From NCBI RefSeq assembly GCF_002854065.1, contig NZ_CP024147.1: a stretch of 64,000 nt of DNA. One strand, given 5' to 3'. Made by a program: the position numbers. Of the stretch, positions 42,001-48,000 are shown piece by piece. This DNA comes from Escherichia coli. Lineage in GTDB: Bacteria > Pseudomonadota > Gammaproteobacteria > Enterobacterales > Enterobacteriaceae. Positions within the stretch are counted from its first letter, which is position 1, and every line of letters begins with the position of its first letter.

Positions 42001-45000
42001 ACGGCGGATGGCGCGTTCCATAAAGCGTTCGTAGATTGACTCCTGCACTAAGGCACGACTCGGACAGGTGCAAACTTCGCCCTGGTTAAAGGCAAACAGT
42101 GCAAAGCCTTCCAGCGCTTTATCGAAAAAGGCATCTTCTTCATCCATCACATCAGCAAAGAAGATATTTGGCGACTTACCGCCCAACTCCAGCGTCACCG
42201 GAATAATGTTTTGCGTTGCGTATTGCATAATTTGTTGGCCCACTTCCGTTGAGCCGGTAAACGCCACTTTGGCGATGCGTTTCGAGGTCGCCAGATATTC
42301 GCCAATTTCCCCACCTGCGCCATTGACCACGTTCACCACGCCCGGCGGCAGTAAATCACCGACAATTTCCATTAGCAGCAGTACAGAAAGCGGGGTAAGA
42401 CGTGCGGGTTTCAGCACCACACAGTTGCCCGCCGCCAGCGCGGGAGCCATTTTCCAGCTCGCCATCAGCAGCGGGAAGTTCCACGGGATAATCTGCCCCA
42501 CCACGCCTAACGGTTCATGGAAATGATAGGCCACGGTTTCGCTATCAACTTCACTGATCCCACCTTCCTGCGCCCGAATACACGAGGCGAAATAGCGGAA
42601 ATGGTCAATCGCCAGCGGTACATCCGCAGCACTGGTTTCGCGAATGGGTTTGCCGTTATCCCAGGTTTCAGCTGTCGCTAACAGCTCGAGGTTTTGTTCC
42701 ATTCGATCGGCAATCTTAAACAGAATCGCCGCGCGATCCTGCACCGAGGTGTGCGCCCATTTATCTTTCACTTTGTGCGCAGCATCCAGCGCCAGATCGA
42801 TGTCTCGTTTGCCCGAAGACGCCACTTCGCACAGCAGCTGCCCGGTCACCGGCGTCAGGTTCTGGTAATACTCACCATCGGCAGGGGCTACCCATTCGCC
42901 GCCAATAAAGTTGTCATAGCGGTTTTTTAACTTGAGGGGGAAACCATACTCGCCGGGCTTAATCTGTGCTGAAGGGGGATTATTGGTCATGATCGTCTCC
43001 TTGCGGTGTGAGGTATAACAAGGGTAGACGTGACTGGCGAAATCTTCGCCAGTCGGTAACAGCTTTACGACAGCTATCACGAATTTACGGGCAAGGATTA
43101 CAGAGATAGTTGAAAAAGCGGCTGACAATTTGCCAGCCGTTGTTGGAATGATGATTACATTGCGGCGCGATAAATCGCCACAATTTCTTCGTGAGTTGCC
43201 TGGATCGGGTTAGTAAAGCCACAGGCATCTTTCAGGGCATTAGTCGCCAGAACCGCGAAATCTTCTTCTTTCACGTTCAGGTCGCGTAGGCCTGCCGGGA
43301 TATCCACTTTCTTCGCCAGTTCACGGATGGCGTTAATGCAGGCTTCAGCACCTTCCGCGTCGTTTTTACCTGTCACGTTCACGCCCATTGCAGCGGCACA
43401 GTCACGCAGACGTGCAGCGGCGACTTTGCTGTTGAATACCTGAACATGCGGCAGCAGAACGGCGTTACATACACCGTGTGGCAGGTTGTAGAAACCGCCC
43501 AGCTGGTGCGCCATCGCATGAACATAACCCAGAGAAGCATTATTGAACGCCATACCGGCGAGGAACTGGGCATAAGCCATTGCTTCACGCGCTTTCGCAT
43601 TACTGCCATCTTCAACGGCTAACGGCAGGTTTTCGGCAATCATGGTCACGGCTTTCAGTGCACAAGCGTCAGTGATCGGCGTGGCGGCAATAGAAACATA
43701 CGCTTCGATAGCGTGCGTTAAGGCATCCATACCCGTTGCGGCGGTCAGTGACTTCGGCATACCAATCATCAGAGAGGAGTCATTGACAGAAAGCAGCGGA
43801 GTGACATGTTTATCAACAATCGCCATTTTGATATGACGCGCTTCGTCAGTGATGATGCAGAAACGGGTCATTTCAGAGGCCGTACCCGCCGTGGTATTGA
43901 TGGCGATCATCGGCAGCTGCGGTTTTGCAGAGCGGTCAACGCCTTCGTAATCGCGAATATCGCCGCCATTGGCTGCCACCAGCGCAATACCTTTTGCGCA
44001 GTCGTGCGGAGAACCACCGCCTAAGGAAATCACGCTATCGCAATTATTTTCTTTAAGTAATTTCAAACCTGCAGCGACGTTTTCCGTGGTGGGGTTAGGT
44101 TGGGTGCCATCATAAATAATGCTAAAAATATTGCGTTCTTCCAGTGCTTTTTGCACATCGCCCGCCAGGTAATGACTCCAACTTATTGATAGTGTTTTAT
44201 GTTCAGATAATGCCCGATGACTTTGTCATGCAGCTCCACCGATTTTGAGAACGACAGCGACTTCCGTCCCAGCCGTGCCAGGTGCTGCCTCAGATTCAGG
44301 TTATGCCGCTCAATTCGCTGCGTATATCGCTTGCTGATTACGTGCAGCTTTCCCTTCAGGCGGGATTCATACAGCGGCCAGCCATCCGTCATCCATATCA
44401 CCACGTCAAAGGGTGACAGCAGGCTCATAAGACGCCCCAGCGTCGCCATAGTGCGTTCACCGAATACGTGCGCAACAACCGTCTTCCGGAGACTGTCATA
44501 CGCGTAAAACAGCCAGCGCTGGCGCGATTTAGCCCCGACATAGCCCCACTGTTCGTCCATTTCCGCGCAGACGATGACGTCACTGCCCGGCTGTATGCGC
44601 GAGGTTACCGACTGCGGCCTGAGTTTTTTAAGTGACGTAAAATCGTGTTGAGGCCAACGCCCATAATGCGGGCAGTTGCCCGGCATCCAACGCCATTCAT
44701 GGCCATATCAATGATTTTCTGGTGCGTACCGGGTTGAGAAGCGGTGTAAGTGAACTGCAGTTGCCATGTTTTACGGCAGTGAGAGCAGAGATAGCGCTGA
44801 TGTCCGGCGGTGCTTTTGCCGTTACGCACCACCCCGTCAGTAGCTGAACAGGAGGGACAGCTGATAGAAACAGAAGCCACTGGAGCACCTCAAAAACACC
44901 ATCATACACTAAATCAGTAAGTTGGCAGCATCACCTATTATTGTTTAGCAAAATTAATCTAATAAAAAGCACATTGTATTCATTAAACAATGTGCTTTTT

Positions 45001-48000
45001 TTAAAATCATAAGAATTTTGGGTAATGACTCCAACTTATTGATAGTGTTTTATGTTCAGATAATGCCCGATGACTTTGTCATGCAGCTCCACCGATTTTG
45101 AGAACGACAGCGACTTCCGTCCCAGCCGTGCCAGGTGCTGCCTCAGATTCAGGTTATGCCGCTCAATTCGCTGCGTATATCGCTTGCTGATTACGTGCAG
45201 CTTTCCCTTCAGGCGGGATTCATACAGCGGCCAGCCATCCGTCATCCATATCACCACGTCAAAGGGTGACAGCAGGCTCATAAGACGCCCCAGCGTCGCC
45301 ATAGTGCGTTCACCGAATACGTGCGCAACAACCGTCTTCCGGAGCCTGTCATACGCGTAAAACAGCCAGCGCTGGCGCGATTTAGCCCCGACGTATCCCC
45401 ACTGTTCGTCCATTTCCGCGCAGACGATGACGTCACTGCCCGGCTGTATGCGCGAGGTTACCGACTGCGGCCTGAGTTTTTTAAATGGCGGAAAATCGTG
45501 TTGAGGCCAACGCCCATAATGCGGGCGGTTGCCCGGCATCCAACGCCATTCATGGCCATATCAATGATTTTCTGGTGCGTACCGGGTTGAGAAGCGGTGT
45601 AAGTGAACTGCAGTTGCCATGTTTTACGGCAGTGAGAGCAGAGATAGCGCTGATGTCCGGCAGTGCTTTTGCCGTTACGCACCACCCCATCAGTAGCTGA
45701 ACAGGAGGGACAGCTGATAGAAACAGAAGCCACTGGAGCACCTCAAAAACACCATCATACACTAAATCAGTAAGTTGGCAGCATCACCGAATTTTGTATT
45801 AATTTATTTTAAAACTTAATTAATCATTTCCTTATTTTTCCGGAAATAATAATGCGTCGCGCAATAAATGATCATTTCCACGACGACGCGTAAAGCCAAT
45901 GCGGTCAAAATATTCCAGGATTTGAATCGCCAGTTTTCGCCCAACCCCTAAGCGATCGCGGAAATCCGCCGCGCAGGTTGAACCACATTCCTGATCGAGA
46001 TCGCGGATCATATTGGCAAACTCGACAATCCGATCGTTACGGTAATAACGATCTTTGACGATCGCGGTAATTATCCCCTGTTGGGCCGCCTGGCGTAGCG
46101 TCAGACGCATTGCCTGCTCGTCGGTTCCCGTCTCTTTTGCCAGGTCACGCACCCACCACGGTTCGTCACCAAACAGCGGCTCTGCTTTTTGCCAGATGGC
46201 CTGCTGCTCTTCGCTGAAGCCCGCTTTGTGATCCGGCAGATGCAGCCAACCGTGATGACTGAGGATGTCGCCGCTTTCGCGCATCTTTTCAATCAGCAAC
46301 AGTACCAGCGCTTCATCTTCCATTGGCAACGCCATACGTCGCAGACGTTCGCGCCCAGGACCAGGTTCATCGCGATGTTGCTCATGATAAGTCGCTAATG
46401 TGTCGAGAATTTTCCGCTGCCAGCGGGCGGCAACTGGCGCATTCAACAAGCTATAACCAGCCTGAATATAGCCCGGCTGTTGCAGTAGTTCGCGCATCCC
46501 TTCGCCGTTGAGCTGGCGTGCCCAGGCGAAATCCGCAAGGTTAACCGCTCCGCGTTCCAGATGAACAGATAACGCATCGGCATCGCTCTGCGCCCGTGCA
46601 AGAGACGCCAGCCATTGCAGATATTCCGGCTTACGTTTACCGCGACGCGGCGGGTTAAGCATCACCACACGTGCCCCCGCCAGCGTATTGCGGGCCGAGA
46701 TATCGCGCAACACTAAGCGATCGTTATCCGCCAGCCACAGCGGCGTGTCGAACACCAGCTCGGCAAGGTTATCTTCCAGCAGCGAAACGCGTCCCGTAAC
46801 GTGGCTGGCGGCGTGGTGAATATGCAGCGGCTGCCACTGGGTCAGCGGCGTATGGGTTTGAAGCTCGACAATCACCCGCGTGAACGGCTCTGGCGGCACA
46901 TCGGCAAGCAGCCAGTCGCCACGGTTAATCTGCTCTTTTTCCGCATCCCCCGCGATGTTAAGCGCGATACGCTGGCCGGCATGAGCGGTTTCTGTTGGCT
47001 GGTTTTGTGCATGCAGCGCACGTACACGCATCGGTTTATTTACACCAGTCAGCCATAGTGAATCGCCTACCGTCACTTCCCCGCTTAACGCCGTACCGGT
47101 GACGACCAGCCCGGCACCTTTTACGGTAAATGCGCGGTCGATCGCGAGGCGGAAACTATGTTGGCTGGCGTGTTCACGTTCTGGTAACTGAAGCAGATGC
47201 TCGCGCAGGGCATCAATTCCCCGACCCTCGGTTGCTGCGGTGATAAACAGTTTTGCCTCAGCAAAACCGTATTCCCGCAGCACCTCCTTTACCTGGCGTT
47301 CAACCTCATTAACACGCGCTTCGTCCACGCGATCGGCTTTGGTCAGCGCCACTGTCAGCATCGGGTTACCGGTCAGCTGCAAAATCGCCAGATGCTCACG
47401 GGTCTGTGCCATCACACCGTCATCGCACGCCACCACCAACAGCGCGTGATCGATACCACCAACGCCCGCCAGCATGTTGGAAAGAAACTTTTCATGACCG
47501 GGTACGTCGATAAAACCAGGCACGCGACCATCCGGCTGCGGCCAGTAGGCATAGCCGAGATCGATGGTCATGCCGCGCTTTTTTTCTTCCGGCAGACGAT
47601 CGGCATTTACGCCAGTAATCGCCTGCAATAAGGTTGTTTTGCCGTGGTCAACGTGTCCGGCAGTCGCAATAATCATTTCAACAACATCTCCAAAAACCGT
47701 TGCTCATCTTCAAGGCAGCGTAAATCCAGCCACAATCGTCCGTCATAAATACGACCAATCACCGGCACTGGCAATTCACGCCAGCGGGCGGCTAATGACT
47801 CAAGGTGGCTACCGCGTCCATCATGGGGTGTAAACGTTAATGCCGCGCTCGGCAGGCGATCAACCGGCAGCGAACCACTGCCAATCTGCGAAAGACATGG
47901 CATAACCTGTACCGCAAACTCCGCGCCGTAATGTGCGGCAAGGGGAGCCTGTAAACGTTGTGCCTGGATTTGAATGACCTCTGCGCTGCGGGTAAGCAGG

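Follow-up and report, generated by a model that had tools for sequence, protein, structure and literature searches.

How did two copies of the insertion sequence IS1 come to lie between selB and yiaY in this Escherichia coli genome, and why is only one of them bordered by a target-site duplication? The locus belongs to a stretch of 64,000 nucleotides of contig NZ_CP024147.1 (hereafter the window). The best explanation is that both events reflect the ordinary activity of IS1, and that the AT-rich DNA between the two genes has been hit by this element repeatedly in E. coli. The elements concerned and the DNA immediately around them are as follows.

461..1228, plus strand: a third IS1, cleanly inserted in lpfB and bordered by a 9-bp duplication, CGGTCAGCG
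44168..44935, minus strand: IS1 copy 1 (IS1A type), intact, 768 bp, both inverted-repeat ends present
44605..44880 and 44183..44686: insA and insB' frames of copy 1, both matching NF033558
44936..45020, no strand: 85-bp relic of native selB-yiaY intergenic DNA, an exact match to positions 2977..3061 of the XJ34 locus
45013..45020, no strand: left copy of the 8-bp target-site duplication of copy 2, GAATTTTG
45021..45788, minus strand: IS1 copy 2 (IS1B type), 768 bp, intact, the product of a simple insertion
45458..45733 and 45036..45539: insA and insB' frames of copy 2, both matching NF033558
45789..45796, no strand: right copy of the 8-bp target-site duplication of copy 2, GAATTTTG

Both copies have intact ends, which read GGTAATGACTCC... 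on the low-coordinate side and ...GGCAGCATCACC on the high-coordinate side, and both keep the imperfect terminal inverted repeats of IS1, GGTGATGCTGCCAACTTACTGAT and GGTAATGACTCCAACTTATTGAT. Each copy holds a 91-aa and a 167-aa open reading frame, which match NF033558 at profile positions 1-81 and 75-199, respectively. The A6C slippery motif TTAAAAAAC, which serves the -1 frameshift between insA and insB', was found in both. The copies are identical at 759 of 768 nt and have in common a stretch of 324 identical nt. Copy 1 differs by 1 nt from IS1A-family elements of BS90R-A, 22F46, and 2012EL-2448, whereas copy 2 differs by 1 nt from the IS1B-family element of TOK-001 and by 1-3 nt from RefSeq IS1B-family elements. 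The initial annotation of this DNA had placed the two elements at these same coordinates and had recognized copy 2 as a sequence variant, which agrees with the 9 differences and with the assignment to separate types. It had also described the copies as inverted in orientation. This is correct with respect to the plus strand of the window, as both lie on the minus strand; relative to each other they are direct repeats, with a start-to-start spacing of 853. A mosaic or gene-conversion origin for the uneven spread of the 9 differences is unneeded, each copy being a standard variant throughout.

As a repeat present in many copies, IS1 is a frequent cause of broken or confused assemblies, and the exact arrangement described here was found in no second genome. 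A single real IS1 might thus have been wrongly duplicated, or repeats might have been mis-joined. Such an artefact is nevertheless highly improbable: the two copies are distinct variants with unique native DNA between them, one of them carries a perfect duplication, and all four junctions fit the biology of IS1.

Copy 1 is 100% identical to the oppositely oriented IS1 in lpfB, which suggests a recent spread of this variant. An inversion or exchange between these two elements was rejected; the lpfB copy has a perfect 9-bp duplication, and the gene order at copy 1 is native.

Copy 2 results from a simple insertion, as had been proposed. An IS1B-type element inserted 35 nt past the stop codon of selB and duplicated 8 bp. 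The duplicated octamer is found on both sides of the element and is single-copy in IS-free references (positions 3054..3061 of the XJ34 locus). The element does lie close to the selB stop; the earlier figure of 36 bp is to be replaced by 35 nt from the stop to the duplicated target and 43 nt from the stop to the IS1 end. The duplications of the window, 8 bp at copy 2 and 9 bp at the lpfB copy, are of the two lengths that IS1 is known to make, together with a preference for AT-rich DNA, local hops, and short deletions (PMC5009759).

Copy 1 is of another kind. Its flanks, CGCCCGCCA and TATTATTGT, do not match, as already noted from the sequence, and there is no target duplication. The gene that it abuts, and the gene downstream, are the following.

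43155..44167, minus strand: remnant of yiaY (L-threonine dehydrogenase, Fe-ADH family), 1013 nt
41452..42990, minus strand: aldB, intact, 512 codons, downstream of yiaY (open reading frame; annotated aldB matches in XJ34 and K-12)

The ancestral state could be reconstructed from IS-free relatives, namely XJ34 (99.9%) and ten loci whose flanks reach 99.98% identity. Close relatives are IS-free at the locus, and one draft contig is 100% identical over 16.1 kb. Given these E. coli matches, a Shigella origin, considered in view of the density of IS1 and the lack of a counterpart in RefSeq E. coli, is not supported. In XJ34, the flanks of copy 1 map to locus positions 2768 and 2977. The 208 bp that copy 1 has replaced comprise 69 bp upstream of yiaY and the first 139 nt of the gene, i.e., 46 codons plus 1 nt. 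All of these eleven loci show a spacing of 208 bp, 0 bp, and -8 bp for left flank, relic, and right flank. In 18 IS-free loci (XJ34 and 17 others), the native DNA between selB and yiaY contains the relic with 100% identity, and the check that had been proposed for its native origin is thereby answered in the affirmative.

The same alignments dispose of a different reading of the paired elements. Two direct IS1 copies around a short segment resemble the architecture of Tn9, and the whole IS1-85 bp-IS1 unit might have arrived as a composite transposon of this type. The probability of this is negligible, and the comparison with IS-free relatives refutes it: the 85 bp in the middle are native and still occupy their original position and orientation, CGCCCGCCA and GAATTTTGT on the outside form no duplication, and copy 2 has a duplication of its own, one half of which lies inside the supposed unit.

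An IS at the junction, the lack of a duplication, and the absence of native DNA exactly between the flanks are all present at copy 1. The missing duplication is attributed to the associated 208-bp deletion. The locus can therefore be read with high confidence as an ordinary IS1 insertion accompanied by an IS1-associated deletion. This upholds the earlier view that copy 1 reflects an adjacent deletion or recombination between IS copies rather than a simple insertion. Both processes have been invoked to explain missing target duplications (PMC11708052), and they leave the same end product as that observed here.

As to the cause of the deletion, the most likely course, proposed with middling confidence, is that IS1 first inserted and then brought about an adjacent deletion. 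An IS1A-type element, a sibling of the lpfB copy, would have inserted in the selB-yiaY interval. The junction on the selB side, preceding TATTATTGT, is favoured as its original site, although the left junction, 1 nt from which strain I3 has an independent simple insertion, may have been the original one instead. By intramolecular transposition, one of the two ends of the element, probably IRR, would then have attacked a nearby position within yiaY. Such an attack would remove the 208 bp and erase the target duplication, as in the classic adjacent deletion of IS1. This process was reportedly first described by Reif and Saedler in 1975, in the gal region of E. coli.

Homologous recombination is a close rival, though a somewhat less probable one. 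Two same-orientation elements of the IS1A type would have inserted independently, one at each of the present junctions (yiaY codon 46/47 and 69 bp upstream of yiaY), and their recombination would have deleted the 208 bp together with one IS1. Recombination of two such copies 208 bp apart predicts the exact flanks equally well as an adjacent deletion. Both junctions of copy 1 also lie within 0-1 nt of independent ones: the left junction is 1 nt from a simple insertion in strain I3, and the selB-side junction is found exactly in NH-21, there with a different IS1 variant. Pairs of neighboring elements do occur, as this very genome has two same-orientation IS1 85 bp apart and strain E3 has two IS1 in yiaY. 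In mutation-accumulation lines, the moves of IS1 are local, and the partners in most deletions linked to an IS are a copy that was already there and a new one nearby (PMC5009759). On the other hand, recombination needs three events, compared with two for adjacent deletion, and no intermediate was found. Copy 1 shows no mosaic pattern either, although parents of the same variant would leave none. A precursor with a simple insertion and a duplication at either junction was sought in 5,426 complete E. coli genomes and by exact-pattern and exact-protein look-ups, and was not found.

Insertion and deletion might also have taken place in one step, by a single aberrant transposition in which the two IS1 ends were joined to targets 208 bp apart. 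Events of this kind have been proposed for other insertion sequences (PMC11708052) and were left as a possibility for deletions whose junction carries a novel IS (PMC5009759). For IS1, however, no such pathway is established, and the two-step routes are well documented and sufficient, which makes a one-step origin improbable.

Whichever route was followed, the consequences for yiaY are the same. The full gene has 383 codons in K-12, XJ34, and ten near-identical relatives, and the possibility that yiaY is naturally of the present length is thus dismissed. Against the 383-position L-threonine dehydrogenase profile NF007363, the remnant covers positions 51-383. It differs by 1 nt from yiaY of XJ34 and by 1 aa from the K-12 protein. 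The initial annotation had estimated a loss of about 45 to 50 codons and the promoter, in line with the 46 codons and 1 nt found to be missing. Judged from its sequence, yiaY has lost its promoter, its ribosome-binding site, and 46 codons, among them those for the beginning of the nucleotide-binding fold. In the remnant, a GTG at 44156 is the earliest possible in-frame start. The rest of the gene is undamaged, and yiaY is for this reason classed as a recent pseudogene. An outward or hybrid promoter reading from IS1 into the remnant was considered and rejected, as a promoter scan gave only IS1's own promoter-like sites there.

On the other side of the pair, the insertion of copy 2 concerns the end of the selAB operon.

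44964..45000, minus strand: hairpin with a 14-bp stem and a 9-nt loop, between an A-run and a U-run
45832..47676, minus strand: selB, intact, 614 codons, last in the selAB operon (open reading frame)
47673..49064, minus strand: selA, intact, overlapping the start of selB (open reading frame; K-12 annotation)

The selAB coding sequence is untouched, and the exact SelB protein is present on many IS-free E. coli contigs. The hairpin in the relic is presumed to be the intrinsic terminator of selAB. The relic RNA (85 nt, hairpin included) folds at -20.1 kcal/mol, with z = -4.2, and the intergenic region without IS1 forms the hairpin as well. Six alleles with variable flanks all keep it unchanged, leaving no covariation to count. 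The stem has 4 G-C pairs in 14 bp, and the U-run UUUUUAUU is partly inside it. A simple terminator scan did not flag the hairpin because its 9-nt loop exceeds the 8-nt limit of the scan. No known RNA families were found in the IS-free selB-yiaY interval. The terminator had been described as stranded in the relic between the two elements. It does sit there; rather than being lost, it has been displaced by 776 nt, and it is still downstream of selB in its original orientation.

According to the scan, the DNA from the selB stop to IS1 (43 nt) contains no terminator-like site, and the selAB transcript, which the initial annotation had taken as bound to run into IS1, can reasonably be expected to read into copy 2. 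It should either end within that element, IS1 having a known polar effect, or continue for another 776 nt to the original hairpin. The insA and insB' frames of copy 2 are co-directional with selB, and read-through may raise the insA/insAB' expression of this copy. Upstream transcription into IS1 has been shown to raise insAB' transcription and transposition (PMC12428005), while an opposite effect of read-through was reported by Machida 1983, as cited in that study. Being downstream of selB with its orientation kept, the displaced hairpin could stop transcripts that cross copy 2 and would shield copy 1 from read-through. As direct repeats with the 324-nt identical stretch in common, the two copies are expected to recombine eventually, deleting the relic.

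The selB-yiaY interval has been used by IS1 elsewhere. In unrelated E. coli, many independent IS1 insertions and one-sided deletions are found in the same AT-rich interval, with about 14 independent events within roughly 300 bp. Strain 2012EL-2448 carries a simple insertion with a 9-bp duplication. In 2015C-3121, IS1 and its selB-side flank are identical to those of 2012EL-2448 (1907/1907 nt), and the other side is joined to yiaJ. Similar one-sided deletions at IS1 were found in TOK-001, NH-21, and ETEC1701. Every IS1-associated deletion mapped in the interval runs away from selB. All but one of the mapped elements have a single orientation, the queries having held a single IS1 orientation and thus favouring same-orientation recovery. 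Six junction pairs coincide within 0-1 nt, compared with about 0.9 expected at random as estimated from the site map, and three of the four IS1 junctions between selB and yiaY in the window have such a twin. This could mean that the interval is a nucleotide-precise landing pad to which IS1 returns beyond its AT-rich preference, a reading that seems rather unlikely. Local DNA structure, a protein bound at the terminator region, or transcription termination could direct IS1 there.

The arrangement found here was absent from 5,426 complete E. coli genomes in junction searches, which gave only near-coincident independent events. The exact junction pattern had no matches in a collection of species-representative genomes, and no exact match is on record for the 333-aa open reading frame of truncated YiaY. 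Look-ups with SelB, the LysR-type neighbour, and a 1737-aa adhesin gave only IS-free or non-overlapping loci.

Beyond annotation, the locus is of little importance. In this strain, yiaY is to be marked as a pseudogene resulting from an IS1-linked deletion, and the selAB 3' region is to be noted as IS1-interrupted. In its 64 kb, the window shows IS1 activity in three textbook forms: clean insertion with a duplication of 8 bp, the same with one of 9 bp, and insertion joined to a deletion. With copy 2 exposed and copy 1 shielded by the hairpin, it may be a test bed for the effect of host read-through on IS1 activity. The recurrent use of the interval across E. coli may interest researchers of target choice.

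An IS1 insertion with an IS1-linked deletion of this type is a phenomenon already known. Compared with IS1A and IS1B of the E. coli K-12 type, both copies have the same 768 bp, ends, insA and insB' frames, and A6C motif. They are 98.8-99.9% identical to annotated IS1A and IS1B elements and show nothing different in kind. Set beside annotated IS1, copy 2 shows an 8-bp duplication in AT-rich DNA, whereas copy 1 has none. Copy 1 shares with the deletions produced by IS1 adjacent deletion or IS-IS recombination the retention of the IS at the junction, the lack of a duplication, and a short, one-sided loss. In 2015C-3121, TOK-001, NH-21, and ETEC1701, the orientation of IS1 is as here, the deletion always runs away from selB, and the junction on the selB side falls in the same intergenic region, except in ETEC1701, where it is at the selB 3' end. 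Those four deletions extend for kilobases, to yiaJ, yiaL, or yiaN, and involve other IS1 variants, in contrast to the 208 bp lost here, where another IS1 also lies alongside. With regard to transcription, copy 2 resembles IS1E of K-12, which has co-directional upstream transcription and no terminator before the element, and copy 1 resembles IS1A of K-12, which has a terminator just upstream (PMC12428005). In that study the effect on transposition was measured in K-12.

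The aldB-yiaY-selB-selA block follows E. coli gene order, all on the minus strand, and carries two IS1 elements between yiaY and selB, parted by an 85-bp relic (44936..45020). A third IS1 lies elsewhere in the window.

461..1228 (452..1237 with its duplication), plus strand: third IS1, in lpfB, 100% identical to copy 1
44168..44935, minus strand: IS1 copy 1, complete, 768 bp
44964..45000, minus (transcribed) strand: hairpin in the relic, 14-bp stem, 9-nt loop, flanking A-run and U-run
45021..45788, minus strand: IS1 copy 2, complete, 768 bp

In copies 1 and 2 the low-coordinate end is IRR (GGTAATGACTCC...) and the high-coordinate end is IRL (...GGCAGCATCACC), so the two are direct repeats on the minus strand, with a start-to-start spacing of 853; the initial annotation had called them inverted, a word that holds only when the window's plus strand is the reference. 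Each contains the 91-aa insA ORF, the 167-aa insB' frame and the A6C slippery site, and matches the IS1 transposase model NF033558. They differ at 9/768 positions, all inside the IRL-proximal 444 nt. Copy 1 is an IS1A-type variant, 1 nt from elements annotated as IS1A family in BS90R-A, 22F46 and 2012EL-2448, and copy 2 is an IS1B-type variant, 1 nt from the TOK-001 element. These direct repeats share 324 identical nucleotides at the IRR-proximal end, over which they could recombine and so remove the relic. The third IS1 disrupts lpfB, which encodes a long polar fimbria chaperone, and is flanked by a perfect 9-bp duplication (CGGTCAGCG); its identity to copy 1 marks the two as recent siblings. 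An exchange of flanks or inversion between them was rejected: the lpfB insertion is clean, and the neighbours of copy 1 are native.

The arrangement was found in none of 5,426 complete RefSeq E. coli genomes, while the IS-free locus occurs in many. The window flanks match ordinary E. coli assemblies at 99.98% identity, and a draft contig in GCA_036586245.1 shows 100% identity across the final 16.1 kb of the window. A Shigella origin is therefore not supported, and the window comes from an E. coli lineage outside the complete RefSeq set searched. In the IS-free reference XJ34 (99.9% identical to the flanks), the yiaY remnant extends to locus position 2768, the relic corresponds to 2977..3061, and the selB-side flank resumes at 3054; ten more IS-free loci, at most 99.98% identical to the window flanks, agree with this reconstruction. 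Alignment thus identified the relic as native selB-yiaY intergenic DNA, as proposed earlier, and bore out copy 2 as a clean insertion, with 8 bp (GAATTTTG) duplicated at 45013..45020 and 45789..45796, a normal length for IS1 (PMC5009759). Its target site, in DNA of 12-20% G+C, does lie just downstream of the selB stop codon, although the measured distance to the duplicated site is 35 nt and not 36. The non-matching flanks reported for copy 1 (CGCCCGCCA and TATTATTGT) were also recovered; it has no target duplication and, compared with XJ34 and the other IS-free loci, takes the place of exactly 208 bp, made up of the opening 139 nt of yiaY and the 69 bp ahead of it. A Tn9-like composite origin of the IS1-85 bp-IS1 unit was rejected, the central 85 bp being native and the outer flanks unmatched.

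Absent target duplications have been ascribed to adjacent deletion or IS-IS recombination (PMC11708052), the two routes already suggested for copy 1 and supported by the 208-bp loss. In an adjacent deletion, IS1 would insert and one end would then attack a nearby site by intramolecular transposition; IS1 is reported to hop locally and to make short deletions beside existing copies (PMC5009759). This is the favoured route, with an about even chance of being correct, and parsimony alone sets it before recombination. The latter, for which two same-orientation insertions 208 bp apart would have recombined homologously, is somewhat less probable, and a one-step aberrant insertion producing both copy 1 and the deletion is speculative. 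All three predict the same end product, and no intermediate was found in the window's lineage. IS1 elements in 17 other E. coli loci were mapped onto XJ34 coordinates.

IS1 duplications and one-sided junctions in other strains (XJ34 coordinates)
2759..3061 in L001 (window 44150..45800): interval of recurrent IS1; loci L002, L012-L016, L018-L020, L022, L038-L042
2759-2767: duplication, I3
2772-2780: duplication, 22F46
2773-2780: duplication, RS571
2783-2791: duplication, E3, with a second, oppositely oriented copy at 2312-2320
2897-2905: duplication, BS90R-A
2911-2919: duplication, 19KM1863
2992-3000: duplication, Eco_23-3511
3022-3030: duplication, ZH142
3027-3035: duplication, 2012EL-2448 (L019)
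3053-3061: duplication, EC931
2977: one-sided, selB-side junction, NH-21 (L016), far side joined to yiaL
3027: one-sided, selB-side junction, 2015C-3121 (L040), far side joined to yiaJ
3053: one-sided, selB-side junction, TOK-001 (L015), far side joined to yiaN
3118, in the last selB codons: one-sided, selB-side junction, ETEC1701 (L041), far side joined to yiaN

The four one-sided elements are anchored next to selB and accompany kilobase deletions, all running away from it. The IS1 and selB-side flank of 2012EL-2448 and 2015C-3121 are identical (1907/1907 nt), and these strains, with a simple insertion and a deletion, respectively, look like natural snapshots of the locus before and after a one-sided IS1-linked deletion. 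The selB-side junction of NH-21 is exactly that of copy 1; its divergent IS1 (29 differences) and different flank allele indicate an independent event. The left junction of I3, whose IS1 is also divergent (38 differences), lies 1 nt from that of copy 1. Counted without phylogenetic correction, IS1 has landed independently at least 14 times in unrelated E. coli within ~300 bp around the start of yiaY and the spacer between selB and yiaY; six pairs of junctions there match to within 0-1 nt. Nearly all mapped elements have the window's orientation, which the queries favoured. These parallels mark the window's structure as a small case of a recurrent pattern, and they tilt slightly toward the selB-side junction as the place where copy 1 first inserted. 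The yia-aldB-yiaY neighbourhood has evidently been eroded by IS1 in several lineages, since PSJ-12 (L017) and MS15047 (L021) carry, both at 801..1568, an IS1 without duplication beyond aldB, joined to truncated yiaN.

A 431-aa Fic-family gene lies between aldB and yiaY in RS571 (L020, 999..2294), L034 (14628..15923) and the O145 genomes H37-H40, and is absent from the window. At window 33055..37477, an AraC-type regulator, an MFS transporter and a GH127 glycosidase adjoin ysaA; the yiaJ-yiaK...sgbE cluster, which holds this ysaA-side position in K-12, is missing in the window's lineage, and the strain of L034 has both clusters. At 57898..63111, a 1737-aa trimeric autotransporter adhesin has an ESPR signal, YadA head, stalk and anchor domains and internal tandem repeats (59425..60467, register ~255 bp); this exact allele is rare, with only 7 contigs in a large protein collection.

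The IS-free intergenic region forms the same hairpin as the relic, whose 85-nt RNA folds at -20.1 kcal/mol (z = -4.2). Its invariance across six alleles of the interval with variable flanks gives no covariation but argues for constraint. The hairpin's loop is longer than a simple consensus terminator scan allows, which is why the scan left it unflagged; it is a plausible selAB terminator. Ancestrally it began ~55 nt past the selB stop and now lies 776 nt farther, beyond copy 2, in unchanged orientation. The claim that copy 2 parts selB from its terminator holds in the sense of a displaced, putative terminator. The reading frames of selA and selB are both unbroken, and many IS-free strains have the identical SelB protein. 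The terminator scan found no hairpin between the selB stop and copy 2, and the selAB transcript should enter copy 2 in the insA sense direction. IS1 polarity arises via Rho-dependent termination, so many selAB transcripts may end inside copy 2; those crossing it would reach the original hairpin. In K-12, both insAB' transcription and IS1 transposition go up with transcription from upstream and go down when a terminator is placed upstream (PMC12428005); older work by Machida (1983), as cited there, had read-through repressing IS1 cointegration. By analogy, copy 2 would be exposed to read-through and copy 1 shielded by the hairpin.

The gene yiaY has lost its promoter region, ribosome-binding site and, as comparison with IS-free loci confirmed for an initial estimate of ~45 to 50, 46 codons (139 nt, 46 codons plus one base). 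The remaining 1013 nt cover positions 51-383 of the 383-position L-threonine dehydrogenase profile and differ by one base from XJ34 and one amino acid from K-12, which indicates a recent truncation of an otherwise undamaged gene. The promoter scan found no promoter-like site reading outward from IS1 into the remnant, so read-through of copy 1 would be its only possible transcription. Its sole in-frame start is a GTG at 44156, and a protein that lacks the opening strand-helix-strand unit of the nucleotide-binding fold would probably not work as an enzyme: yiaY is a fresh pseudogene. In Shigella flexneri, yiaY induction is anaerobic and FNR-dependent (PMC4229854), and the lost function is therefore probably that of an anaerobic oxidoreductase.

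The initial annotation was accurate in observation and essentially right in interpretation. How precisely and how often IS1 lands in this interval across E. coli is the one lead of mild interest, drawn from an orientation-biased, phylogeny-uncorrected sampling. The locus itself is ordinary IS1 biology, combining a clean insertion, a second one associated with a loss of 208 bp, a newly formed pseudogene and a hairpin moved away from selB, and the selB-yiaY arrangement is already known in kind.
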